A stretch of 60,617 nt of DNA, counting the filler, from a candidate division TA06 bacterium SM23_40 (GTDB lineage Bacteria; LJUI01; SM1-40), in assembly GCA_001303705.1 (NCBI GenBank). It is 6 parts of 6 records of this genome, joined end to end, with 100 filler letters (N's around TTAATTAATTAA, not from the genome) between each part and the next. Parts side by side here need not be neighbours in the genome. Positions count along the whole stretch, not along the records: positions 7,452 to 14,767 come from LJUI01000129.1; 5 more parts are not named here. One strand, 5' to 3'. The notes under the pieces were generated by a model. That model had not been told where the DNA came from. It saw only the letters and a program-made list of their open reading frames with translations, and searched no databases. A program made the translations under genes and the position numbers. Of the stretch, positions 1,526 through 53,368 are shown one piece after another. Each line of letters opens with the position of its first letter. The stretch's first letter is position 1.

Positions 1526-2371
1526 TCATCGCACTGCAACAACGAAGCCGAGGAGTGCAACTGCCCAGCAGTAGAAGGCGAACCGTGCGAGCTTTCCCCG
1601 CCGCACGATCCGAACGAGAAAGAGAAGGGCCAGCCAGCCGGAGAGGAATGCGACCGGCATCCCTGCACTGACGGCCACAGGGTTGAAGAGGCCAAGCCCT
1701 TCACCTTGAGCGGAGAGCAGTTCTTTGGCAGTGGCTCCCGCGATTGCGGGCAGCGCGAGAAGAAATGAGAACTCAACAGCCTCCTCCGCGTCCACCCCAA
1801 GGAGCAGCCCTGCTGCGATCGTCCAGCCTGCGCGGGAGATCCCCGGCAGGAGGGCGAGAGCCTGCGCGCACCCGATCGCCCATGCTCCATAAACACCAAC
1901 CGATCGCTCGGCAGCACTCGACCGATTCTCACCGACCGATCGATCGGCACGAACCGACCCACGTCCGCCCGGCGCGAACCGGGTGAGCCAGAGGATCCCA
2001 CCGGTGGCGGCCAGGGCCAGCGACACAAGCAGTGTGCTCTGGAACGCCCGCTCGACAAGATCATCGAGGAAGAGTCCGGCCATTCCTGCGGGAATGGTCC
2101 CTATGATGATATAGAGGATCAGTCTCCGCGCAGAGCGTCCCTCGTCCTCTCTCGATCCGAGACGCGACAGGATCCACCACAGCCGACGACGAAATACAAC
2201 GATGATCGCAACCATCGTCGCGAAGTGGACCATCACTTCGAAGACGATCCCGTGGGTCTGGGCGCCCAGGAGCTCGCGGGCGAGAACGAGGTGACCCGAA
2301 CTTGATACGGGCAGAAATTCGGTGAGACCCTGAACCAATCCGAGCACGAGAGCCTGGATCAGAGTCACCAC
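1526..2371 (-). CDS. uppP: Undecaprenyl-diphosphate phosphatase (BacA family)
   Basis: GLVQGLTEFLPVSSSGHL and PGISRAG motifs; multiple TM helices. Confidence 0.95.
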   Translation of the reverse strand: MVTLIQALVLGLVQGLTEFLPVSSSGHLVLARELLGAQTHGIVFEVMVHFATMVAIIVVFRRRLWWILSRLGSREDEGRSARRLILYIIIGTIPAGMAGLFLDDLVERAFQSTLLVSLALAATGGILWLTRFAPGGRGSVRADRSVGENRSSAAERSVGVYGAWAIGCAQALALLPGISRAGWTIAAGLLLGVDAEEAVEFSFLLALPAIAGATAKELLSAQGEGLGLFNPVAVSAGMPVAFLSGWLALLFLVRIVRRGKLARFAFYCWAVALLGFVVAVR

Positions 2372-2437
2372 CCACCTCCCTCACCACCGGCATAGCAGGC
2401 AACGCCAACCGCACGACGCGCAGTCATATCTCCTTGA

Positions 2438-3280
2438 TCACCCTCCCAGAAAGAGCGCAACGATCCCGATCACTATGCCAATCTTGAGGAGAAGTGACAT
2501 CCGCCCGAGCTTCGCTTTGGAGGGAACACGCACGACGGCGACCGCCAACACGATCAATAGCAGATCGAGGATGGACACCACGACAAGATAGGGAAGACGG
2601 TACCATCCGAGCACGAAGGGGAGCGGTGTGAGGACTACGAGGATGAGCAGAACGGTAGCCGCGAACCGCATCGCCGTCTCCGGCCCCGCGATGATCGCGA
2701 GGCTCCTCACCCCCGTAGGTCGATCGCCCTCGACATCCTCCGCATCCTTGATGGCTTCCCGGCCCAGCGTAATGAGGAACGCAAACAGGGCGGGAAAGAG
2801 CCCTGCCCTGGCACCGCCCCCTGCGATCGCCCCGTAGACGAGGGCCATACCGGTCGCCCCGCTCACGATGAAGTTCCCCAGCACGCCCTGAAGCGCCGTT
2901 GAAACGGCGTACCCGGCCAACGCTACGCTCACGCCAACGGCGATGAGGAATGCGCCGAATCCGACGACAGCGCTTCCCAGGAGCCCCAGTGCGAAGAGGA
3001 TCGCAGAGAGCGCTGCGGCCTCTCCTCTGGTCGCTCTCCCTGACGGCAACGGACGATGCGGCTTGTTGACGCGATCCTTCTCCACATCGAAGATATCATT
3101 GAGCGCGTTCGCGGCTCCGGTAATCATCATCGCCGCGACTGTCGCCACCACGATCGTACCGAACGAAGAGTGCCATCCCGCCATGGCAGCTCCGACAAGG
3201 ACGGATGCCCCGGCGATCAGGCAGTTCTGGGGCCTGGTCAACTCGATGATCGGACCGTACCTCAGACGCTCACGCTCCAT
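2438..3280 (-). CDS. UbiA-family prenyltransferase, digeranylgeranylglyceryl phosphate (DGGGP) synthase-like
   Basis: LTRPQN; NDIFDVEKDRVNKPHRPLPSG (first Asp-rich motif); REAIKDAEDVEGD (second motif, typical of the DGGGPS subfamily). Confidence 0.8.
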   Translation of the reverse strand: MERERLRYGPIIELTRPQNCLIAGASVLVGAAMAGWHSSFGTIVVATVAAMMITGAANALNDIFDVEKDRVNKPHRPLPSGRATRGEAAALSAILFALGLLGSAVVGFGAFLIAVGVSVALAGYAVSTALQGVLGNFIVSGATGMALVYGAIAGGGARAGLFPALFAFLITLGREAIKDAEDVEGDRPTGVRSLAIIAGPETAMRFAATVLLILVVLTPLPFVLGWYRLPYLVVVSILDLLLIVLAVAVVRVPSKAKLGRMSLLLKIGIVIGIVALFLGG

Positions 3281-3289
3281 GTCAGCCTC

Positions 3290-4834
3290 CTAGAAGTCGA
3301 GCCGCACCCAGAACCGCGCCAGCCACTCGCTCGCATAGGCACCATCGTCATGGTCCGGATTCTTCGTCCCCTGCCAGCTCCCTTCGGCAGCGAGGTCGAG
3401 CCGGGCGCCGACCTCGGCCCAGCCCCCCAGCCATAGAGCATCCTTGCGCTCCACGATGCCCGAGGGGAAGGGCGGGAACGCCGTACCCCTCTCGATCTCG
3501 AACGGCAAATGTACGTCTCCCTCACCGTGCCTGGTCGCCCGATAGCCCGCCTCGATCCCCAAGAACGGGAGGAGGCGATGCTCCATCTCGATGTCGAGGC
3601 GATCCGCATCAGGGCCGAGCTCGTGGCCGATGATCGCGCCCCGGTGCTCATATGTGTTTTCTATCTGTTCCTGGGTGTACACCCACTTGTCCAGACGGGC
3701 ATACTCACAACGCACGTCAGTATCCTGGAGGCCCAGCGGATCGGCGAGATAGCAACCCGCGAGGTATCCGAACTTATCCGGCATGACCGGCGGATCCTTC
3801 TCGTACTGCCAGTCGTCGATGAGGAATTCGCCGTCCAGGCGAACCCCATCCAGCGCCTGCCATGATAGATCGACCGACCAGAGGATCTGGTCATCGCGCC
3901 CCCTCACCATCTGTGCGACCAGATAGGGGGAGAGCGGATTGAGGTACAGGGGCTCGGGGCGCTCGGCACCGTACAGAACCGCCTCCGCGATACCCACATC
4001 GAACCCCCACGGCAGACGGACGGTCAGGCGGTGGGCCGAGAAGAATCGCCTCTCTCCGGGCTCGAGTTCGGCGAGAAAGAAAGAGAACTCGACGGGGCGC
4101 AGCACGAGATCCATCTTCACCATATCGAAGAAGTAGGATTCGTCCGAGATGAGAAGCGCCCCGAAGTGGCCGGGCCCCCACCAGACCTGATCCCTCCCCA
4201 CCTCGACCCTGAACCACGGCAAATCATATGCCCAGTACCCCCGGTCGAGAACGAGCGTCGCGCCCTTCCAGAATTGCTGATCAGGACGACCGACCTTCCG
4301 CCACGTATCCTCATCCCAGCGGGTGAGGCGGACTGCCATGGTCTGCTCGAAGACAGGCCCCTCCCCCAGCTGTCCCGCGGCAAGGAGGTCGAGAAAGGTA
4401 GCATAGTCAGGGCGTTCTTCATTCGAGAGGAGGAGTGACTCTGCGAGCGACGCATCGGCGAGGAAGTAGACCTCACTGTATTGCGTTTCGAGGAGCGGCT
4501 CATCGACGACCCCCGGAGCGGATACACCGAGCTCGTGGTCGAATTCGTGGACGAGCTTCGCCAGCCAATGCCGGTCCGCCCGCGAGAGCTGAACGTCTCC
4601 TCGCTCGACATCCCTCTGCAGCTCGCGCACCGCATCAGCAACCTGTCGCCGGGTATAGGGCCGGTGTGCCTGGTTCAGCTCTACCAGACCCTTCGCGTCG
4701 AACCGGTCGAGTATCTCATAGCTCCAGTGCGAGAGCGGTACGTTACGAGACCCCTGGGCCAATGTCGAAACGGCCCCCACTGCGAGGACCAGCGCCGTCC
4801 ACCACACCAGCCAGCCGACCGCTCGCTCCATCAT
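3290..4834 (-). CDS. Capsule assembly Wzi-family outer membrane beta-barrel
   Basis: Signal peptide; N-terminal helical part with RPYTRRQV; GRDQVWWGPGHFGALLISD; C-terminal Phe (VRLDF). Confidence 0.8.
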   Translation of the reverse strand: MMERAVGWLVWWTALVLAVGAVSTLAQGSRNVPLSHWSYEILDRFDAKGLVELNQAHRPYTRRQVADAVRELQRDVERGDVQLSRADRHWLAKLVHEFDHELGVSAPGVVDEPLLETQYSEVYFLADASLAESLLLSNEERPDYATFLDLLAAGQLGEGPVFEQTMAVRLTRWDEDTWRKVGRPDQQFWKGATLVLDRGYWAYDLPWFRVEVGRDQVWWGPGHFGALLISDESYFFDMVKMDLVLRPVEFSFFLAELEPGERRFFSAHRLTVRLPWGFDVGIAEAVLYGAERPEPLYLNPLSPYLVAQMVRGRDDQILWSVDLSWQALDGVRLDGEFLIDDWQYEKDPPVMPDKFGYLAGCYLADPLGLQDTDVRCEYARLDKWVYTQEQIENTYEHRGAIIGHELGPDADRLDIEMEHRLLPFLGIEAGYRATRHGEGDVHLPFEIERGTAFPPFPSGIVERKDALWLGGWAEVGARLDLAAEGSWQGTKNPDHDDGAYASEWLARFWVRLDF

Positions 4835-4879
4835 CTATCCTCCTTCAGCACGCGCGACACACGCTCTACCGCTTCCCGA

Positions 4880-6307
4880 TCAGTCCCATATCCCCTGAAC
4901 CAGCCGCAGCGATGCAAGCCCCAGGATGCGGAAGAAGTAGCGATCCCTCACCCTCATCAGCTTCCGCAACTCTCTCAGCCAGAACTGGGGGCGCCGGTAG
5001 TAGCGTTCGAATGCCCTCAGAGAGATCTGCTCCAGTTCCCCAGACGTGAACCGGGCAAGCCCTCGCTCCGATCCTGCTGTCACGTTCGACTCATCTTCCC
5101 CGATGAGTCCTCGCCGGCGTGCGTCCTCCCACAGCTCGGACCCGTATGCGTAGTCGAGGACCCAGAATGTCGCGAAGTCGAGGGGAATCTCCCTGGCGAA
5201 TGTAAACGTGCGCTCTATCTCCTCCGTGCCCTCAAACGGTGCCCCGATGATGAAATCTCCGACCGTGTACAACCCCACCCGATTGGCGATCTCGACAGCC
5301 CGCCGGTTCATCTCCACCGTGGTCCGTTTGTTGTAGAAATCGAGGACCGTCTGATTCGCCGACTCGAGCCCGAAGACGACAGCCCGCACTCCCGCCCGCC
5401 GCATCTTACGGTACAGCTCCTCATCCACCGCATCAACACGCCCCTGAACCGCCATCGCCAGATCGATCCCTTCTTCGATGATACCGTCCATGATCTGGTG
5501 GACACGCCGCTTGTTCACAGTGAAATTGTCGTCGACGATGCCGAGTATCTCGTACCCCTCCCGATAGACGGTGCGGATCTCGGCGAGGACATTCTGGGCG
5601 CTCCGCTCCCGATACGTCTGGAACGTAACCGCCCCGTGCGCACAGAACGTACAGGAAAACGGGCATCCTCGCGACGTGATCATCGTGGTAATCCTGCTAC
5701 CCATCCGCTCTCCCAGGATGTTGTACCGCCTTGCCTTCTCGGGCGAGCGGACGAGCGACCTCGCGGGGAACCTGATCCGGTCGAGATCGCGCTCGATCGG
5801 CGCCTCCGGACCTCGCCGGATCTGGCCGGTGCGACGGTCGCGGTAGATCGCTCCCGGACAGGATGACGGGTCTCCCCCGTTGAGCAACGTATCGGCGATC
5901 TGGACAATGATCGACTCAGCCTCGCTCACCACAGATACGTCGGCACCGTCGACAGCCCTCGGGTAGAGAATGAGATCAGGCCCCCCGACTACGATCGGCA
6001 ATTCACCGTGGAGAGCACGGATGTCCGCGATCATGGTCTGTGCGTCGGAGCGGTTGAAACTCTGCATCGAGATCCCGACGAGATCGGCATTCCGCACAAT
6101 GAGCTCGAGCCGCTCCCGGCTGTACCCCTCGGCGTTGAAGTCGACGACCTCAACTCCGTACCCGGCATCGAGGAGCTCACGCCCGAGATACAGCAGTCCA
6201 AGCGGGGGAACGATGGCCAGCCGCTGCTTCACCCCCTTCCCCTCAGTGCTTCCCGCGACCGGAGTCCCCGTCTCAGGAAAGAGCAACGCCACATTCTTCG
6301 CCATCAT
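4880..6307 (-). CDS. Cobalamin-binding radical SAM protein
   Basis: PPLGLLYL and VVGGP of the B12-binding domain; TSRGCPFSCTFC; DDNF; GLES. Confidence 0.92.
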   Translation of the reverse strand: MMAKNVALLFPETGTPVAGSTEGKGVKQRLAIVPPLGLLYLGRELLDAGYGVEVVDFNAEGYSRERLELIVRNADLVGISMQSFNRSDAQTMIADIRALHGELPIVVGGPDLILYPRAVDGADVSVVSEAESIIVQIADTLLNGGDPSSCPGAIYRDRRTGQIRRGPEAPIERDLDRIRFPARSLVRSPEKARRYNILGERMGSRITTMITSRGCPFSCTFCAHGAVTFQTYRERSAQNVLAEIRTVYREGYEILGIVDDNFTVNKRRVHQIMDGIIEEGIDLAMAVQGRVDAVDEELYRKMRRAGVRAVVFGLESANQTVLDFYNKRTTVEMNRRAVEIANRVGLYTVGDFIIGAPFEGTEEIERTFTFAREIPLDFATFWVLDYAYGSELWEDARRRGLIGEDESNVTAGSERGLARFTSGELEQISLRAFERYYRRPQFWLRELRKLMRVRDRYFFRILGLASLRLVQGIWD

Positions 6308-6392: not shown

Positions 6393-7351
6393 TCCGAAAG
6401 CGGCGGAGGGGGCTCCCTGCTCGGCCGACGCGAAGCGTCCGCCCCCAGCACATCAGTCCACCCGCACATCCCCGATCAACCAACACGCGCCGCCAGGCCG
6501 ATTCCCTTGCTCGGATCAACATCACCAAAGGCGGCGGAGGGGGCTCATGAGGAGTGAGCTCCGCGGCCGCGCCGGCACACACACTATCAACACCCCATCA
6601 GTGCACCATCAGACCCCCGATCAAGCATCCCGCGCCGCCAGGCCGATTCCCTTGGTCCGACCAACCTCACCAAAGGCGGCGGAGGGGGCTCGTGAGGAGT
6701 GAGCTCCGCGGCCGCGCCCTCAGCTCACAGACTATCAATAGCACGTCAGTCCACCAACAGATCACAGATCGATCAACAGCCGCCGCTGGGCGGACGCGAA
6801 GCGAACGCCCCGCGTCCTCCGCCCTCACCCAACAAACTGAGCATATCACAAAAGATCGATAACAAAGCGACCTGTACCCCACGAAACGCCGCTAGCGAAC
6901 TCCGAACGAGCCCCATCCGCCGCCCCCTCAACCCCCGTCCTTAACCAGCGGCCCCCCGATCAACCCGCGAACTCGAGATCTAACAGACCCACAATCACAC
7001 GACGTCGGCACCAACACCACCGCCAAGTCAATCCCCGGTGCTCCAAGCCACCGCACCTCGACCAACTCTTGCCCCCGAGCTCACGCGAACCGTCCGCCCC
7101 AGTCTGACCAACATCACCAAAGGCGGCGGAGGGGGCTCGTGAGGAGTGAGCTCCGCGGCCGCGCCCTCAGCTCACAAACTATCAACAACGCATCAGTCCA
7201 CCAACAGATCACAGATCGATGAACATCCGCCGCTGGGCGGACGCGAAGCGAACGCCCCGCGTCCTCCGCCCTCACCCAACAAACTGAGCATACCACAAAA
7301 GATCGATAACAAAACGACCTGCACATCACGAAATGCCGCTAGCGAACTCCG
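6393..7351. repeat. Composite REP-like intergenic repeat cluster running into a contig break
   Basis: GCGGCGGAGGGGGCTC core near 6400, 6530, 6676 and 7123; a ~245-bp block at 6661-6904 repeated at 7108-7351; embedded GC-rich hairpins. Confidence 0.85.
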
Positions 7352-7451
7352 NNNNNNNNNNNNNNNNNNNNNNNNNNNNNNNNNNNNNNNNNNNNTTAAT
7401 TAATTAANNNNNNNNNNNNNNNNNNNNNNNNNNNNNNNNNNNNNNNNNNNN
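7352..7451. other. Artificial contig linker
   Basis: N44-TTAATTAATTAA-N44 (stops in all six frames). Confidence 0.99.
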
Positions 7452-7637
7452 CAGGACGACCAACACGACGACTGTCAGCATCGGTACATATGACAGATGG
7501 TTTATTCCCCACAGCTGAGCGAACGGCGTGAGCCCCGCCACGAGTGCCACCGCGATGAGGACCAGCGAGGCAATGAGGACAGAGTCCTGCCACGCCGGCC
7601 GTTTTGACTTGACTTCACCATTTCGGTGCTCCATCAT
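7452..7637 (-). CDS. Membrane protein, N-terminal fragment truncated by the contig end
   Basis: MMEHRNGEVKSKR followed by two hydrophobic helices flanking LWGINHL. Confidence 0.6.
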
Positions 7638-7848
7638 GGAGGCTCCGATGTAGTAGCACTGCCACGGTGACGGGTGATTGTGCAGGTCGATCTCGACGAC
7701 TGATACATTCGAGTCCCGACGGTATTGTGGGGACAACGATTGAATCTAGCACGTTGTGGGTGATTTGTCGAGCAACGAGAAGAGTGTGCGGAGGTCTCCC
7801 CCCGGACAGTTCTCCCTCACGAACGGCTCATACACAGGACTCATAGCC

Positions 7849-8502
7849 ATGCCAGAGCGCTTCGCCGATAAGCGCGCGCGAGCGGGGAGAATCGTTCGCG
7901 CCTTGAAGCAGGCCTATCCAGACGCCCGCTGCGCGCTCCATCACTCATCTCCACTCGAACTCCTTGTCGCGACGATACTCTCGGCCCAATGCACCGACGA
8001 GCGTGTCAATCAGGTGACCAGGGGGCTCTTTGCGAAGTATCGGAGCGCCTGCGACTTCGTCTCTGCCGATCCGCATCAACTCGAGAACGAGATCAGGTCG
8101 ACCGGGTTCTACCGGAATAAGACGAAGCACATACAGGCGGCGAGTGCAGCGCTCGTCGAACGCCACCACGGAGAGGTGCCCAACACGATGGAGGCGCTCG
8201 TCGAACTTCCCGGGGTCGCGCGGAAGACCGCCAATGTCGTACTCGGGACTGCGTTTGGCAAGACTGCTGGCATCGTCGTCGACACGCACGTTCACCGCCT
8301 GGCGAAACGCCTCGACCTCTCCCGAGAAAAGGATCCTGAGAAGGTGGAGCAGAATCTCATGTCGCTTGTGCCAGAAGAAGACTGGATTCAGTTCTCGTAC
8401 ATGCTGATCGAGCACGGCCGGACCGTGTGCAAGGCACGCACCCCTCAGTGCGGAATCTGCGTCCTTTCGTCCAACTGCCCATCCGCCTCTCTCGAGGCCT
8501 GA
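7849..8502 (+). CDS. nth: Endonuclease III
   Basis: LLVATILSAQCTD; HhH motif LPGVARKTANVVL; VDTHV; C-X6-C-X2-C-X5-C Fe-S motif. Confidence 0.97.
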   Translation: MPERFADKRARAGRIVRALKQAYPDARCALHHSSPLELLVATILSAQCTDERVNQVTRGLFAKYRSACDFVSADPHQLENEIRSTGFYRNKTKHIQAASAALVERHHGEVPNTMEALVELPGVARKTANVVLGTAFGKTAGIVVDTHVHRLAKRLDLSREKDPEKVEQNLMSLVPEEDWIQFSYMLIEHGRTVCKARTPQCGICVLSSNCPSASLEA

Positions 8503-8716
8503 ATGGGGACACTACCCCCAGCCGCTGATCAAACCACTCCGCCGGGCACTCCAGCCCACCGGGAAGCCCCCTACCCAACGTCTGTAACACCCTACCCAAG
8601 TCCGGCACGATTTCCGGCTGACCGGCGCAGACAGCGCGCATGCATCATATAGATAACCTGCTCGCCCATTTACTGTTATGCGATACCGCCATCTTCCCTC
8701 AGGGCGTACTCAACTT

Positions 8717-8731
8717 TGGCCCGATTCTTGC
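8717..8731 (+). promoter_or_regulatory. Putative sigma54 (-24/-12) promoter
   Basis: TGGCCCGATTCTTGC has exact GG-N10-GC spacing and one mismatch to TGGCACG-N4-TTGC; it lies ~140 nt upstream of the 8869 ORF. Confidence 0.6.
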
Positions 8732-8868
8732 GCTCCTTCAGGCTGTCTCTCTCAGAGCCGGTCCGAGGCGCCCATGGTCCACGCGACTGTGTCTTTGGCG
8801 CCTCGGACAATTCTGGGCGTGCGAGCAGAGTTGGGACGAAGGAAGTGTGAGCAAAGGAGGCTAACGCA

Positions 8869-9165
8869 ATGGCCAAAACCCAGAAGATCGACACCCAGAC
8901 CTACAACTACAACTACACGTGGAAGAAGGGTGTCTGGCCGACCATGACGATTCAGGACATCACGACTCCGGGCTGCTACGTCGATTGGCACACTGGTCAT
9001 CTGTACCGGGTCAATCCGGAGATGCTCGAAGTCGGGGGCACCATCTTCAGTTGCTTCTGCTCGACTGATCCCTGGCTGGTTGTCAAGATCAGCGATAACT
9101 ACCTGTTACCGTTGGACGAGGCCAGGATCCTCGCGGCCAATGCCTCCGCGAATGTCAATTTCTAG
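8869..9165 (+). CDS. Small hypothetical protein (98 aa)
   Basis: Strong SD AAAGGAGG 8 nt before the ATG; GC3-biased codons; followed by a terminator; motifs PGCYVDWHTGHLYRV and KISDN...AANASANVNF. Confidence 0.85.
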   Translation: MAKTQKIDTQTYNYNYTWKKGVWPTMTIQDITTPGCYVDWHTGHLYRVNPEMLEVGGTIFSCFCSTDPWLVVKISDNYLLPLDEARILAANASANVNF

Positions 9166-9218
9166 AGGTCGGGGCAGATTGTCCAACGCCAGCTGGTGAG
9201 TCTGCTCGCTTTTCCCAG

Positions 9219-9262
9219 AAACGACCTGCCCGTGAGACGAACCTCACGGGCAGGTCGTTTTG
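9219..9262 (+). terminator. Rho-independent terminator (probably bidirectional)
   Basis: Perfect 18-bp stem AAACGACCTGCCCGTGAG / CTCACGGGCAGGTCGTTT, 6-nt loop, T-run. Confidence 0.85.
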
Positions 9263-9427
9263 TGCCGCCGAGGCCCCCCTGCACCGGCCTCCTCGCTCCA
9301 CCGGGTACCACCAGAATCGCCCTTGCGCGCAGAGCGGTGGTGGTGTATAGATGTATCATCATACCTTGCCGATAACTTCCACGCAAAGTCCATGGTTCCT
9401 CCAACCGGCCCAGAAGGGAAGGAGTCG

Positions 9428-10708
9428 ATGGTGCTGGTCCACCTCATCGCAGCCTCCGCACTCGTGCTCGGCACACTCGGTGTGGACCACGGCCCCACGG
9501 GGGTGTCGCACTGGGAGGTGATCGACAGAATCATCCTGAGAGGGAATGAGAGAACGAAGGACTTCGTTATCCTCAGGGAGCTCCGCTATGAGCCCGGCGA
9601 CGAACTGAGCGAAGAGATGCTCTCAGAAGGCTCCAATCACCTGCTTAACACGGGCCTGTTCGCCGACGTCAACTACCGCCTGGTACAGAATGAAGATCCC
9701 TCGTTCGTCGCGGTCGAGCTGGAGGTTCTCGAACGCCCCTCCTGGTATCTCCTCCCCTCTCTCGACTGGGATCCTGACAGGGGAAGGGACGACTGGAGGG
9801 AGGGAATCTCTGTCGGTCTGTCTGGCAAGAACGTCAACTTCAGGGGAGAGGCCCAGACACTGGCGGGGAATGCATGCGTGGGGGCGGAAGAGGCCGTCGA
9901 ACTCAGTTGGGACACGCCGTGGGTGGGGAGCACACGGACTTCGCTCTCCCTGAAAGCCGGCTGGGAAGAGACTCGGGATCCTTTCTACGCCAGGGAGGAG
10001 ACCATCGCCCGGGGTGGGCTCGGGCTGACGCGGTGGATCACCGAGCATCACTCGGTGGGACTGGACGCGGGAATCGAGGATCGCCATCGTCGGCCCAACG
10101 ACGGCTCGTCTGAGGAGGAGGAAGACGCTCTGTTCTTCACTCCCTCAGTGCGCTTCGGGTACGACTCTCGCGATCTCCGTGTCTCCCCCAGTGCAGGGAG
10201 CCTCCTCGAACTCTCGGCCACACAGTCGCGCGACTGGGCCACCGGTGACTACGCGTCTACGACGTACGCACTCGACGCCCGACACTTCAGAAGGATCTGG
10301 GGGCCTCAGACTCTGGCGATCGGCCTCCCCTCCAAACTGAGCCGCGGGACGATGCCGGAATATCTGGAATTACGGGTAGGTGGTGTGAATACGATCCGCG
10401 GATGGCCCCAGGGGGTTTCGCAGGGAATACATTCGGTCGTCGGGACTGTCGAGTATCGCATTCCCCTCGTAGAAAAGCAGCAGCTCCCTCTGCCGTACTT
10501 TGGACTTTGCGATTTTTCAGTCGCCTCAGCCCTGTTCGCCGACGCCGGCATGACCTGGAGCCAGAGGCCCAGTCAGGAACACTTCCTCACAGGGTTCGGA
10601 CTCGGCATCCGCATCTTCGTCCCATTCGCGGACGTCATCAGACTCGACTATGCCTGGAATAGCGAATTCGACGGGCGCTGGCAGATCGAGAAGGACGTCA
10701 AGCTTTGA
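9428..10708 (+). CDS. Omp85/BamA-TamA family protein with a single POTRA domain
   Basis: POTRA (IDRIILRGNERTKDFVILREL...GLFADV); VGGVNTIRGW (VRGF-like loop-6 motif); LFADAG; GFGLGIR. Confidence 0.88.
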   Translation: MVLVHLIAASALVLGTLGVDHGPTGVSHWEVIDRIILRGNERTKDFVILRELRYEPGDELSEEMLSEGSNHLLNTGLFADVNYRLVQNEDPSFVAVELEVLERPSWYLLPSLDWDPDRGRDDWREGISVGLSGKNVNFRGEAQTLAGNACVGAEEAVELSWDTPWVGSTRTSLSLKAGWEETRDPFYAREETIARGGLGLTRWITEHHSVGLDAGIEDRHRRPNDGSSEEEEDALFFTPSVRFGYDSRDLRVSPSAGSLLELSATQSRDWATGDYASTTYALDARHFRRIWGPQTLAIGLPSKLSRGTMPEYLELRVGGVNTIRGWPQGVSQGIHSVVGTVEYRIPLVEKQQLPLPYFGLCDFSVASALFADAGMTWSQRPSQEHFLTGFGLGIRIFVPFADVIRLDYAWNSEFDGRWQIEKDVKL

Positions 10709-10715
10709 CCTGTGT

Positions 10716-12083
10716 TCAGTCCTGTCGCGGACGATACAGCCGTTCGCGTGCGATCTCGAGAGAGAGGTTGAACTCACCTGCCAGCACCTGTGCGGCCAGG
10801 CAGGCGGCGAACTCGCGCGCAGTATCGATACCCATAATGCGGAGCGCCTCGCGTCCCGGCGGAGGAATGAGCCCCTCGCTGCACGATAGAGTGCCGGCCT
10901 CAACGTTTGGCAGTTCCACTCCATAGACCAATTCGTCACCCTCCACACCGGCGTAGATGCGCTCCAACGAGGAGACGAGCGGCGAGTGGGGATTCACTTT
11001 AGTCGCCTTGTACATGCCGGCGATGATCTCTCCCCCCATCCCTGTATGGTGAAACCATCCCATCTTCTCCACGCCGCTCGCATCGAGCCTCACGAACGAG
11101 AGGAGCCGCTCTGCACTGCACTCGAAGTACTTCCCGAATGAGGCAAGGGGGACGTGGACCTCGGCGGCCGCATATCTCCCCCGCTTGTTCCGGGGGCTCG
11201 GCTTGAGATCGCCGTCATAACCCTGTGCGATCGCACTCACCTCGACCTCGATGCTGTGCTTCCGGAGTTCTGCGTCCACAAGCTCCTTCACCGCTCCCAC
11301 TGCCTGACTGATCGCCCCGTGACCCCGATAGTTGACGAAGTCCGCGGTGAATTCGACAAACAGGAAAAAGGAATGTGGATCGTCGGCCCTGAAGAACTCG
11401 ACAGTGGCAGGCTGGCCATCCCACTTCCCCAAGATCTTTCTCAGCCGGTCTTCGAGACTCCCCATCGCGCCGCCTATGACCTTGAGGGCCCGCTCCCTCT
11501 CCTCCTCCTTCCCAAAGATGAGACCGACACATCTGCTCGCGCTCGCTCGCTGCCCCACCTTGACCCTGGCCCCGCCGAACCTGTTAATCATATGGCACCC
11601 GCGGCACACACCGATCGGCCCCAGGCCCGTGCCGTACTGCAGCAGTATCTGGAACTCCCCGTCACAGTCGCCGGTCAGACGGATCGATCCCGCGAACGAG
11701 TAATAGTCCTCGGTCCCACCGACATAGTTATTCACAAGAGGAGCGTACCGCTCCGCCGAGGAGTCGGCGGGCTTCAGCGCCCCCCTACACAACGTGCATC
11801 TCTTATCGGTGTCGGCGGCATCAAGCTCGAAGGTCGTGCGATCATGCTCGCACACATAGCGCACCTTGTAGGGGGTTTCAGGGATAGCGATGTGCCGGAA
11901 CTCGATTCCGGTTCTCTTCGCGATCCACTGCCTCCTCGCCTCGGCGGCGAGGCCGAATTGTTCGGGAGGAGCGAGACCATGAACCTCGATGAGGTACCCC
12001 TCTACTTTCCAGGGCGGCATCTCCCCCGCCTCGAGCATCGCCACGGCCTCATCGACAGCCTTCCTCGATCCTGCCATCGCCAT
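10716..12083 (-). CDS. Divergent class I HMG-CoA reductase-fold protein with substituted catalytic residues and a putative Zn-ribbon insert
   Basis: Collinear with archaeal HmgA by eye: AAEARR..GIEFRHI, NNYVG, AGSIRLTG..GEF, RGC..GG, DLKP, RGRYAAAE, LPNVEAGT, REALRIMGI, AREFA..VLAGEFNL. Confidence 0.8.
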   Translation of the reverse strand: MAMAGSRKAVDEAVAMLEAGEMPPWKVEGYLIEVHGLAPPEQFGLAAEARRQWIAKRTGIEFRHIAIPETPYKVRYVCEHDRTTFELDAADTDKRCTLCRGALKPADSSAERYAPLVNNYVGGTEDYYSFAGSIRLTGDCDGEFQILLQYGTGLGPIGVCRGCHMINRFGGARVKVGQRASASRCVGLIFGKEEERERALKVIGGAMGSLEDRLRKILGKWDGQPATVEFFRADDPHSFFLFVEFTADFVNYRGHGAISQAVGAVKELVDAELRKHSIEVEVSAIAQGYDGDLKPSPRNKRGRYAAAEVHVPLASFGKYFECSAERLLSFVRLDASGVEKMGWFHHTGMGGEIIAGMYKATKVNPHSPLVSSLERIYAGVEGDELVYGVELPNVEAGTLSCSEGLIPPPGREALRIMGIDTAREFAACLAAQVLAGEFNLSLEIARERLYRPRQD

Positions 12084-12259
12084 ACCCCCTGTCTCTCTTC
12101 AATATCTCTCTTCAGCGCCGTGTCGGCAGCACATCCTCCGGCTGCGGAGAGCGGCGGTGCCCACAGGGGCTCCGCCGCCCATCCCTCGGGTATGTCGCTA
12201 TTCCTCATCGCTCCACATATTCCACCATCCTTGCTCGCCACACCGTTGGCGGTTGACGG

Positions 12260-12287
12260 ATTGTACCCCGTCTGGGGAACGTGTCAA
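12260..12287 (-). promoter_or_regulatory. sigma70-type promoter for the HMGR-fold gene
   Basis: Minus strand TTGACA-N16-TACAAT. Confidence 0.7.
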
Positions 12288-12336: not shown

Positions 12337-12365
12337 TTGACAATAGACGCCCTCCTCTCTAGAAT
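12337..12365 (+). promoter_or_regulatory. sigma70-type promoter for the ABC operon (divergent)
   Basis: TTGACA-N17-TAGAAT. Confidence 0.75.
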
Positions 12366-12430: not shown

Positions 12431-13369
12431 ATGGCGCTCCTCGAAGTGATAGACCTGTCGAAGAGCTTCGGCGAGACAGTGGCGGTCGACGACATCAGCT
12501 TCGATGTCGAAGAAGGCGAAATCTTCGGTCTGCTCGGCCCGAACGGTGCGGGCAAATCTACGACAGTCTCGATTCTCTCCGGCATACTGACCCCCTCACG
12601 CGGGAAGGTGGTGCTTGCCGGAATGGATGTCGTCCACAGCCCACTCGCGGCCAAGGCCATGATCGGCGTCGTTCCCCAGGAGGTCGCTCTGTACGATGAA
12701 CTCTCTGCGACTGAGAACCTCTCCTTTTTCGGACGGCTGCACGGCCTGAGCGGGCCCCGGCTTCGAGAGAGGATCTCCTCCATGCTTGAGACTGTCGGCC
12801 TGGGTGAGCGTGCACGCGAGCCGGTGAAGCGATATTCCGGCGGCATGAAACGCCGGCTCAACCTCGCGATCGGACTTCTCCACCAGCCGAAGATTCTGAT
12901 CCTCGACGAGCCCACCGTGGGGATCGATCCTCAGGGCCGCGTCCGCATCCTCGAGGTCGTCCGCCGCGAGGCAGAATCTGCCTCCACAACTGTCCTCTAC
13001 ACCACGCACTACATGGATGAAGCGGAGTCGCTCTGCGACCGGGTTGCGATCATGGATAGGGGACAGATTTTGGTCCAAGGGACAGTGCACGATCTAAAGA
13101 TGCAGGCCGGCCAGAAGGATGTCGTCAAGATCGCCGGTTCCTTCCCGGACGAGGATTTCGCGAGCACATTCTCAGATATCGCCGGGTCCAAAGTCGGCAC
13201 GGTCAAGGCCGAAGAGATGCTGATCTCCGTCGATGATGCGAAGGGGGCGTTGCCCCTGATCATCGACCGGCTGACCTCGCGTGGCGCGAGCATCAGAAAG
13301 GTGGAAGTCGAGGAACCGACACTGGAGACGCTCTTCATCCACCTGACGGGAAAGGAGCTACGAGATTGA
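12431..13369 (+). CDS. ABC-2-type exporter ATP-binding protein
   Basis: Walker A GPNGAGKS; signature YSGGMKRR; Walker B ILILDEPT; TTHYMDEAE. Confidence 0.96.
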   Translation: MALLEVIDLSKSFGETVAVDDISFDVEEGEIFGLLGPNGAGKSTTVSILSGILTPSRGKVVLAGMDVVHSPLAAKAMIGVVPQEVALYDELSATENLSFFGRLHGLSGPRLRERISSMLETVGLGERAREPVKRYSGGMKRRLNLAIGLLHQPKILILDEPTVGIDPQGRVRILEVVRREAESASTTVLYTTHYMDEAESLCDRVAIMDRGQILVQGTVHDLKMQAGQKDVVKIAGSFPDEDFASTFSDIAGSKVGTVKAEEMLISVDDAKGALPLIIDRLTSRGASIRKVEVEEPTLETLFIHLTGKELRD

Positions 13370-14767: not shown

Positions 14768-14867
14768 NNNNNNNNNNNNNNNNNNNNNNNNNNNNNNNNN
14801 NNNNNNNNNNNTTAATTAATTAANNNNNNNNNNNNNNNNNNNNNNNNNNNNNNNNNNNNNNNNNNNN
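14768..14867. other. Artificial contig linker
   Basis: N44-TTAATTAATTAA-N44. Confidence 0.99.
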
Positions 14868-16210
14868 TCGCCGAGGGCAAATGCGATGTGGTAGTCGGTC
14901 CGCGGTCCGCGGTCTTTGCGCCTGTACGGCATCTCGGGCTGGTGGTGATCGACGAAGAGCACGATGCCTCGTACAAGCAGAGTGATGCGAATCCGCGATA
15001 TCATGCACGGGATGTGGCGCTCGAGCGGTCCCGTCTATCGAGTGCTTCCCTGATTCTGGGGAGCGCAACTCCTTCGCTTGAGAGTTATCTCAGCGCGCAA
15101 CACGGCGTCTATCGGCTCGCGACACTGCCGAGCAGGATTGGCGGACGGCCGCTCCCGCGCGTTGAGATCGTCGACATGCGGAACGAGCGCGGAGTTCACG
15201 CTGGTACGGCCATCGGAGCCCGGCTCTGCGATGCGATCGCCGATAGACTGCTCAAGAAGGAACAAGCGATCATGCTCCTCAATCGCCGCGGGTTCTCGAA
15301 CTACCTCCAGTGTCGGACCTGCGGCCACGTGATCCGCTGTCAACGATGCAGTGTCTCTCTGACCTATCACCGAACAGGGCCGGCGCTGCGTTGCCACTAC
15401 TGCGGGCTTTCTGAGCGGCCTCCTGACGAGTGCCCCGAGTGTCATGGCACGTTCGTCGGAGGGCGGGGGACCGGCACGCAGGCTGTCGAGGACGAACTCG
15501 GGGAACTCTTCCCGCGGGCACGGGTGTTACGGTTTGATGCCGATACGACACGGCGCAAGGGCGCACATAGGGACCACCTCGAGCGCTTCGGGCGTGGGGA
15601 GGCCGATATCCTGCTCGGCACGCAGATGATCGCCAAAGGGCTCGATTTCCCCCGCGTGACGCTCGTCGGGGTGGTATCTGCGGATACCGCCCTCAACCTT
15701 CCCGATTTCAGGGCCGCGGAGCGGACATTCCAGCTTCTCGCTCAGGTTGCGGGACGGACAGGGAGGAGCGAGCTGGGAGGAGAGGTGATCATCCAGAGCT
15801 ACGCGCCGGATCACTATGCCGTCGATGCGGTACGGGGGCACCGGTACGCCGAGTTCGTTCAGCAGGAGCTCAGGGCGCGTCAGGAGTTGGACTACCCGCC
15901 CTTCAGCCGCATGGCCCTGCTGAGATTTCGTGCGCCGGATGAGGAGCGCGTGAGCAAGGCGTGCGAGGCTGTCGCCGAGACGTTGGCCGGTATCATCGGT
16001 GGACAGGATAGATCCGATATCAGCATTCTGGGTCCCGCCCCGGCCCCTATTGCTCGCTTGCGCGGAGCGCATCGCTGGCACATTATTGTCAAGGGCAAAG
16101 ACATCGATCATGTCCGTTCTGTCGTGAGAGAGGCTCGCAAGAGGTCCGACGGCTTCAGGGTGCGCGGTGTGAGAGTCGCGATCGATATCGATCCGATCGA
16201 GGTCCTCTGA
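14868..16210 (+). CDS. priA: Primosomal protein N' (5' truncated)
   Basis: DEEHDASYKQ; GSATPSLES; LNRRGF; four CxxC; GTQMIAKGLDFP; QVAGRTGR. Confidence 0.97.
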
Positions 16211-38519: not shown

Positions 38520-38619
38520 NNNNNNNNNNNNNNNNNNNNNNNNNNNNNNNNNNNNNNNNNNNNTTAATTAATTAANNNNNNNNNNNNNNNNNNNNNNNNN
38601 NNNNNNNNNNNNNNNNNNN
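38520..38619. other. Artificial contig linker
   Basis: N44-TTAATTAATTAA-N44. Confidence 0.99.
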
Positions 38620-45905: not shown

Positions 45906-46005
45906 NNNNNNNNNNNNNNNNNNNNNNNNNNNNNNNNNNNNNNNNNNNNTTAATTAATTAANNNNNNNNNNNNNNNNNNNNNNNNNNNNNNNNNNNNNNN
46001 NNNNN
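45906..46005. other. Artificial contig linker
   Basis: N44-TTAATTAATTAA-N44. Confidence 0.99.
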
Positions 46006-53268: not shown

Positions 53269-53368
53269 NNNNNNNNNNNNNNNNNNNNNNNNNNNNNNNN
53301 NNNNNNNNNNNNTTAATTAATTAANNNNNNNNNNNNNNNNNNNNNNNNNNNNNNNNNNNNNNNNNNNN
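53269..53368. other. Artificial contig linker
   Basis: N44-TTAATTAATTAA-N44. Confidence 0.99.

Follow-up and report, generated by a model that had tools for sequence, protein, structure and literature searches.

The stretch of DNA analysed here (60,617 nucleotides (nt), filler included; hereafter the window) comes from the candidate division TA06 bacterium SM23_40 (assembly GCA_001303705.1). The gene under study lies on its minus strand at positions 10716..12083 and encodes a protein with the fold of HMG-CoA reductase (HMGR; HMG-CoA, 3-hydroxy-3-methylglutaryl-coenzyme A), in which the residues required for HMGR catalysis are replaced by a different set that is conserved throughout a family of bacterial relatives, here called family A. 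The intact open reading frame (ORF) of 455 aa described in an earlier note on this DNA was borne out; it is read on the minus strand, from a first ATG at 12083 to a stop codon at 10716-10718. The Shine-Dalgarno sequence claimed in that note was also found, as the Shine-Dalgarno-like AGGGGG (12085..12090, minus strand), which leaves a spacing of 1 nt to the first ATG and of 7 nt to the second, at 12077. A database protein that is 100% identical to the window protein (P0002) has a length of 453 aa; together with the 7-nt spacing, this indicates that the true start is probably M3, the second ATG, giving 453 aa.

The sigma-70-like promoter that had been proposed for the gene, TTGACA-N16-TACAAT, was detected at 12260..12287 on the minus strand (12287 to 12260 in the direction of the gene) with 11/12 positions matched. 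It lies ~177 nt upstream of the ATG, which implies a putative leader of ~170 nt. The 2.1-kb region contains two promoter-like sites, compared with 0.6 ± 0.8 in shuffles. The search of the ~170-nt leader against Rfam gave no match except a chance CRISPR-DR hit at E 2.4, and the z-score of its predicted fold was −1.35, which is nothing unusual; the idea of a riboswitch in the leader was set aside on these two results. The second promoter-like site, TTGACA-N17-TAGAAT (12337-12365, plus strand, 11/12), points to an ATP-binding cassette (ABC) transporter gene pair of the ABC-2 type that is divergent from the HMGR-like gene and starts at 12431, so the 350-bp intergenic region between them holds back-to-back promoter matches. 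On the other side, an Omp85/POTRA gene (9260-10708) is convergent with the HMGR-like gene.

Fold and Domain Layout of the HMGR-Like Protein

Of the 8000 candidates scored in a first protein search, 238 matched at E ≤ 1e-3. The top 120 of these relatives (425-473 aa, 48-100% identical to the query) were aligned with the query to give the family alignment (n = 121; minimum length 425 aa; median pairwise identity 0.60, range 0.42 to 1.00), to which the family counts below refer.

The window protein has the HMGR three-domain fold, as the earlier note had supposed, with significant matches by Pfam, by the family profile against a solved HMGR and by Foldseek. Pfam PF00368 covers residues 159-448 at 41.2 bits (cut-off 27, E 1.4e-10), and the score for the NCBIfam equivalog TIGR00533, 55.5 bits, is below its cut-off of 441.8. 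Among solved structures, the archaeal HMGR of PDB entry 6hr7 matches best, with an E value of 4.5e-11 for the single sequence and 5.1e-17 for the family profile. The AlphaFold2 model, computed from 37 family sequences, reached a mean predicted local distance difference test score (pLDDT) of 91.1 and a predicted template modelling score (pTM) of 0.91, and its S domain is kept and confidently modelled. In the Foldseek search of this model, 6hr8 and 6hr7 ranked at the top (6hr8_B at E 1.1e-23, TM 0.64/0.73), followed by human HMGR structures at ~1e-20. A search of the ESM Atlas returned the own cluster of the window protein and ordinary HMGR clusters, and nothing else.

The N-terminal domain (residues 1-65; 11889..12083, minus strand, as are all segments of the protein) was modelled as three helices, spanning residues 2-19, 24-35 and 41-58. 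It carries W25 in the motif PPWKVE, which is invariant in the family; at the aligned position, in a region of weak alignment, some canonical HMGRs have Tyr or His. A Cys-ribbon insert follows (residues ~66-108; 11760..11888), in which the window protein has the motif C78-x2-D81 ... C96-x2-C99. This segment of ~40 residues appears in the alignment as an insertion that neither canonical HMGRs nor the archaeal sister clade described below possess, and it was modelled as short beta hairpins with pLDDT 94-96. C78, C96 and C99 are present in 121/121 family members, and the residue at position 81 is D (63 members), C (26), H (19) or E (10), one of these four in 118/121, so the family pattern reads C78-x2-[DCHE] ... 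C96-x2-C99. No ribbon family was reported in the Pfam search of the window protein, and one family member carries the JGI name RPC12/RpoP. The insert is read as a putative zinc ribbon whose fourth ligand varies, which would provide a structural metal site gained in the bacterial family A. This ribbon had not been mentioned in the earlier note, whose description of a scaffold collinear with HMGR from end to end holds for the order of the motifs but not strictly, as the insert breaks the collinearity.

The remaining segments correspond to the L and S domains of HMGR. Part 1 of the L domain (residues 109-190; 11514..11759) contains NNYVGG for ENxIG and YGTGLGPIG for TTEG, with T152, R161 and R184, whilst the S domain (residues 191-280; 11244..11513) contains N251-Y-R253-G254-H255-G256 where HMGR has the NADPH loop DAMGMN. 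Part 2 of the L domain (residues 281-455; 10719..11243) holds the cis-loop QGYDGDLKPSPRNKRGR, where L293 replaces the catalytic Lys, together with D334, GMGGEI (E352), KVNP (N364), PNVEAGxxSxxEG (E403) and a C-terminal LAGEFNL helix without His.

Replacement of the Active Site

Residue equivalences were obtained from HMMER alignments to the archaeal 6hr7 and the human 1dq8. We anchored the human numbering on the DKK and GQD motifs, and we take the Glu of TTEG to be Glu559 and the Arg of NRGC to be Arg568. In the alignment to 6hr7, Y150-G-T152-G is matched with T-T-E-G, NNYVG with ENMIG, and R161 with the Arg of NRGC. In the alignment to 1dq8, N251, R253, G254, H255 and G256 occupy the positions of Asp653, Met655, Gly656, Met657 and Asn658 in the NADPH loop; A286, D292, L293 and K294 those of Ser684, Asp690, Lys691 and Lys692; and M349, E352 and N364 those of His752, Asn755 and Asp767. 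D334 stands at about the position of Lys735, and E403 within the GGG loop.

All the motif substitutions listed in the earlier note are visible in these two alignments: ENMIG is changed to NNYVG, TTEG to YGTG (Glu to T152), DAMGMN to NYRGHG, DKK to DLK (Lys to L293), GQD to KVN (Asp to N364) and GTVGG to GTLSC, the whole loop being GTLSCS for GTVGGG. Five of the six positions of DAMGMN are replaced, and only its Gly (G254) is kept. The C-terminal catalytic His is missing, as had been stated, with no His anywhere in the C-terminal helix; in the window protein R448 aligns with it, and across the 121 family members the residue there is K in 66 cases and R in 48.

For HMGR, the review PMC7503714 names Lys691, Glu559, Asp767 and His866 as catalytic. 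The same source assigns Ser684, Asp690, Lys691, Lys692, Asp767, Glu559, Lys735, Asn755, Leu853 and His866 to the HMG pocket; Ser626, Arg627, Phe628, Asp653, Met655, Gly656, Met657, Asn658, Val805, Asn870 and Arg871 to the NADPH contacts; and Ser565, Asn567, Arg568, Lys722, Ser865, His866 and Tyr479 to the CoA contacts (PMC7503714). The window protein has T152, L293, N364 and R448 where a functional class I HMGR requires Glu559, Lys691, Asp767 and His866, and NYRGHG and GTLSCS where it requires the NADPH loops DAMGMN and GTVGGG. Residues retained from HMGR are Asp690 and Lys692 (D292 and K294), Arg568 (R161), Gly656 (G254) and an Arg aligned with R184.

Conservation and Selection in Family A

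Named sources of family members are KSB1, Aminicenantes, Stahlbacteria and Zixibacteria, and most of the 120 listed relatives are annotated as hypothetical. The replacement motifs are themselves conserved: R253, G254, H255, D292, L293, K294, E352, N364, E395, E403, R411, R184 and D334 are identical in 121/121 members, position 152 is T in 117 members and S in the other 4, and position 161, aligned with Arg568, is R in 107 and K in 14. A total of 96 columns are conserved at 97% or more, and these are concentrated in the L domain, with 22/82 and 53/170 columns in its two parts, compared with 11/90 in the S domain. The conserved gains are His255, Arg253, Glu352, Glu403 and Thr152. The earlier note had described the pocket as gaining His, Cys, Tyr and Arg residues, and His255 and Arg253 agree with this, but the pocket Cys residues (C163 in 91/121, C401 in 22/121) are not conserved, nor is the HHTG motif that it had listed, whose His pair is rare (H345 in 7/121, H346 in 9/121).

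The ratio of nonsynonymous to synonymous substitution rates (dN/dS) was calculated by the Nei-Gojobori method for 32 coding sequences (496 pairs) and read from those 13 of the 25 closest locus pairs whose dS was below 1, in which it ranged from 0.099 to 0.183. As the replacement residues are fixed across the 121 relatives and dN/dS is 0.10-0.18, family A is under strong purifying selection and is not decaying. The shared motifs and the low ratio support the earlier argument that selection acts on a different function.

A Sister Clade in DPANN Archaea

A library of 1.84 billion 50%-identity representatives was searched with the family profile, and 359 proteins were obtained at E ≤ 1e-3, only 20 of them at E ≤ 1e-30. 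Among the best 150 matches listed, three were near-full-length family members (P0075, P0123 and P0124), and most of the other strong matches were fragments. Family A is therefore tight as a clade, with a second group of proteins, group B, scoring between it and the canonical HMGRs (66-119 bits in this search). Group B, which the earlier note had not mentioned, consists of proteins of 439-504 aa that are 22-27% identical to the window protein and have no Cys ribbon; its named members are Micrarchaeaceae MEM0201550.1 and Aenigmarchaeota MBI4015160.1.

Family A and group B share much of the altered pocket. His255, Leu/Met293, Met349 and Glu352 were each found in 22/22 aligned rows of A and B, Glu403 in 21/22 and Ala286 in 19/22. 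At the catalytic positions, the 38 canonical rows carry Glu (35 rows), Lys (37), Asn (36) and Asp (38). The common signature consists of GH for the GM of DAMGMN, DGD(L/M)(K/R)PS, N-x-RGR preceded, in both A and B, by a 3-residue deletion ahead of RGR, GMxxE, PxVSS and NxExG...EG, and the window protein carries all of it. A quick IQ-TREE analysis of 60 rows placed A and B together on one side of a branch with a value of 100 in the Shimodaira-Hasegawa-like approximate likelihood ratio test (SH-aLRT); the family A stem amounts to 1.65 changes per column, and both A and B are long branches. The two groups differ at three positions: that of the catalytic Glu is Arg in group B (10/10) and Thr in family A, the Lys735-like position keeps its Lys in group B but is the invariant D334 in family A, and Arg568 is lost in group B but kept as R161 in family A.

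One group B locus lies on L044, a metagenome contig of 11.4 kb. On its plus strand, sucC and sucD (each scoring higher than its NCBIfam cut-off), the group B gene (6959-8347) and a canonical HMGR gene (8335-9597; 365.6 bits in Pfam) overlap one another, and a mevalonate kinase gene (188 bits, cut-off 163) comes next on the opposite strand. The context of this one locus would fit CoA-ester chemistry, and the string of sucCD, group B gene and hmgA suggests a CoA-transferase role for group B. In the same region (L044:677-10621), genes for a FIST/HTH regulator, a LuxE-like protein and a LuxC-like protein were observed upstream of sucC.

Two archaeal-type HMGR-like representatives, P0180 and P0223, cluster with the canonical P0175 and have degenerate catalytic motifs, P0180 for instance having GDAVKTN and no DKK lysines; they may be further independent losses of HMGR catalysis.

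Distribution, Isoprenoid Pathways and Gene Neighbourhood

Family A is patchily distributed. It was found in 14/151 genomes sampled from the order of G001, an Aminicenantes genome in the form of a single chromosome record of 4.35 Mb, and in 1/301 genomes sampled from the phylum of G001, that one being G001 itself. None of 81 pattern matches in viral contigs was a relative. Among 7999 longer candidates (798-2275 aa), no fused form was detected at E ≤ 1e-20, a result that speaks only weakly against such fusions. DNA nearly identical to that of the window is present in sequencing runs from several independent marine-sediment and estuary studies.

The earlier note had asked whether the genome of the window has a canonical hmgA, a mevalonate pathway or a methylerythritol phosphate (MEP) pathway; pathway genes were searched in five genomes (G001-G005) that were reached through family A loci. 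In G001 and G002, both Aminicenantes, DXR and IspH are present and the sole PF00368 match is the family A protein, and neither an HMG-CoA synthase C-domain nor a mevalonate kinase above the cut-off was found. IspH is likewise present in the KSB1 genome G004, whose only PF00368 match is again the family A protein. In G003 (Zixibacteria) and G005, a canonical HMGR (346 and 339 bits, respectively) occurs together with the family A protein, and neither DXR nor IspH was found. Since the family A protein occurs with DXR and IspH where a canonical HMGR is lacking, and also beside a canonical HMGR, it is independent of the isoprenoid route and is no substitute HMGR. The canonical HMGR and a mevalonate kinase (above cut-off) of G003 and G005 share one open frame of 767-771 aa, located at L037:403-2706 (minus strand) in G003 and on L038 in G005, which appears to encode a fusion protein. 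In the window itself, genes for UppP/BacA, a UbiA-family prenyltransferase, a Wzi-like protein and a B12-binding radical SAM enzyme stand in series at 1529-6307 (minus strand); these are genes of isoprenoid-lipid use, and the window contains no pathway gene that would tell the MEP from the mevalonate route.

The neighbourhoods of the homologues, which the earlier note had looked to for a functional clue, proved variable when the ORFs around 35 family A loci were clustered and annotated. The sole recurrent neighbour was a secreted protein of 130 aa, at 16/35 loci, all in Aminicenantes or in bins labelled 'uncultured Eubacteriales', and no match to it was found in the window by tblastn. It was rejected as a partner, being present in 79/151 genomes of the order compared with 14/151 for family A, which is mere synteny. 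A GHMP kinase near the gene at five loci was also set aside, as it is sugar-kinase-like and scores 86 bits compared with the mevalonate kinase cut-off of 163. On a Zixibacteria contig, two adjacent ORFs of 99 aa with identical Pfam scores for GIY-YIG (L015:8587-8886 and 8903-9202, plus strand) lie directly downstream of the HMGR-like gene and look like a tandem duplicate.

The remaining window is ordinary chromosome of a diderm bacterium. Five pairs of N runs, of 44 bases each with 12 bases inside each pair, have the appearance of masked stretches and were observed at 7352-7451, 14768-14867, 38520-38619, 45906-46005 and 53269-53368; one of the pairs cuts the 5′ part of a PriA gene that begins at 14888.

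Discussion

Judged from its sequences, family A is a strongly conserved clade of HMGR-fold proteins in which the hydride-transfer machinery is lost and a new set of polar pocket residues is fixed. The explanation that best accounts for the results as a whole, though we put its probability at only about 45%, is that these proteins are active enzymes that use the inherited pocket, do not depend on NAD(P)H and do not reduce HMG-CoA. The substrate would be bound in that pocket between the L and S domains, which in HMGR is a dimer interface, and Glu352, His255 and Arg253 would be placed where the nicotinamide meets the thioester, with Arg253 and His255 at the positions of the two methionines that touch NADPH and Glu352 at that of Asn755, in the region of the HMG thioester. 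Most tentatively, and as a guess, the acyl group of a CoA-type thioester might be passed to an acceptor other than hydride, such as water (as in a thioesterase), a carboxylate (as in a CoA-transferase) or phosphate (in a phosphotransacylase-like reaction). We take the gene to be an accessory gene that stands alone and occurs patchily among anaerobic sediment bacteria.

Several points weigh against this explanation. The convergence of the new residues on one site depends on the alignment to HMGR contact residues, and long-branch attraction could account for part of the grouping of A with B. Among the seven CoA contacts listed in PMC7503714, only Arg568 is clearly kept, with Tyr479 perhaps represented by W25 in a weak alignment, and Arg568 is not kept in group B. 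No conserved neighbour in the 35 loci supports any pathway, and the operon clue comes from a single sister-clade locus, L044. HMG-CoA lyase was detected in 3/151 genomes of the order of G001 and in 0/14 carriers of family A. Because the Lys735 position is Asp, one of seven CoA contacts is clear and none of the 14 carriers has HMG-CoA lyase, the substrate is probably neither HMG-CoA nor HMG-like.

A more specific version, which we regard as improbable, treats A and B together as a new enzyme class on the HMGR scaffold, in which the hydride donor site has become a second anionic substrate site lined by Arg and His and Glu352 is catalytic. Group B would be a succinyl-CoA:hydroxymethylglutarate CoA-transferase, supplying the neighbouring HMGR and mevalonate kinase with salvaged HMG while the adjacent SucCD regenerates succinyl-CoA, and family A would be a derived CoA-transferase, thioesterase or phosphotransacylase. 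With Lys735 changed to Asp, family A would take a different substrate, possibly an amine-bearing one from amino-acid fermentation.

The loss of all four catalytic residues could also mean that the protein does not catalyse at all and is a pseudoenzyme, a sensor or a regulatory subunit, its old pocket binding a metabolite or the protein pairing with another protein. The sister-clade gene on L044 overlaps the canonical HMGR gene, as a dead paralogue forming heteromers would, and the Cys ribbon could be an interaction module. However, family A occurs in genomes without a canonical HMGR (G001, G002 and G004), the 35 loci offer no conserved neighbour as a partner, the 130-aa secreted protein being far more widespread in the order (79/151 vs. 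14/151), and so many invariant charged residues at former catalytic positions (E352, H255, R253, E403 and D334) would be more typical of catalysis than of mere binding. We consider such a non-catalytic role somewhat unlikely.

It is decidedly unlikely, in our view, that the protein is still a reductase, whether of HMG-CoA, another acyl-CoA or an aldehyde, with a relocated acid/base set (E352 for Glu559 and K294 for Lys691) and a different mode of NAD(P)H binding or another electron donor. Both characterised families with this fold, HMGR and FcrA, are four-electron acyl-CoA reductases according to PMC11948995, the S domain is confidently modelled with Gly656 kept as G254, and a carboxylate (E352) and a Lys (K294) remain beside the old catalytic positions. 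Five of six DAMGMN positions and the GGG loop are nevertheless replaced, with Arg and His at the two Met positions; FcrA keeps the Glu, Lys, Asp and His (PMC11948995), of which family A has none. The score for TIGR00533 is far below its cut-off (55.5 vs. 441.8 bits), a canonical HMGR coexists with the family A protein in G003 and G005, and DXR and IspH are present without a mevalonate kinase above the cut-off in G001 and G002. That the gene is a decaying or mis-assembled HMGR gene without function, as its low scores against HMGR models might suggest, is hardly conceivable and is excluded by the conservation data, given the intact frame, the invariant replacement residues in 121 full-length relatives, the dN/dS of 0.10-0.18 and the near-identical DNA in runs from several independent sediment and estuary studies.

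In the literature searched, the HMGR fold is known only from the NAD(P)H-dependent four-electron acyl-CoA reductases HMGR and FcrA, the latter described recently (PMC11948995). No HMGR-fold family with replaced catalytic residues was found described in that literature, which covered few subscription journals and excluded the supplements of PMC11948995, whose HMGR phylogeny may include the clade. An active but non-reducing family A, or equally a non-catalytic one, would be the first new chemistry or the first non-catalytic role on this heavily studied scaffold, in a clade that spans several uncultured bacterial phyla and has a sister clade whose named members are DPANN archaea. There is also a hazard for annotation: the family passes the Pfam HMG-CoA_red threshold, two of the listed relatives have already been named hydroxymethylglutaryl-CoA reductase, and that name would wrongly imply a mevalonate pathway in organisms with MEP genes.

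Compared with class I HMGR (EC 1.1.1.34), as represented by the enzymes of Methanothermococcus thermolithotrophicus (6hr7/6hr8) and human (1dq8), family A has the same N, L and S domains with motifs in the same order, and the C-terminal VLAGE helix is common to both. It differs in having T152, L293 and N364 for Glu559, Lys691 and Asp767 and K or R at 448 for His866, N(F/Y)RGHG and GxxSxxEG for DAMGMN and GTVGGG, and Glu and Asp for Asn755 and Lys735, as well as in the 3-residue deletion before RGR, the extra Cys ribbon and the lack of any tie to the mevalonate pathway.

The other close family is FcrA, an HMGR homologue that reduces fatty acyl-CoA with NADPH, keeps Glu559, Lys691, Asp767 and His866 and, in its characterised members, carries an N-terminal alkyl-carrier (Lad) domain of 10 strands (PMC11948995). 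Like FcrA, family A would be a neofunctionalised HMGR homologue of bacteria or archaea, and both occur in genomes without the mevalonate pathway, but FcrA has all four catalytic residues and family A none, and the N-terminal addition consists of 10 beta strands in FcrA and of three helices and a small Cys ribbon in family A.

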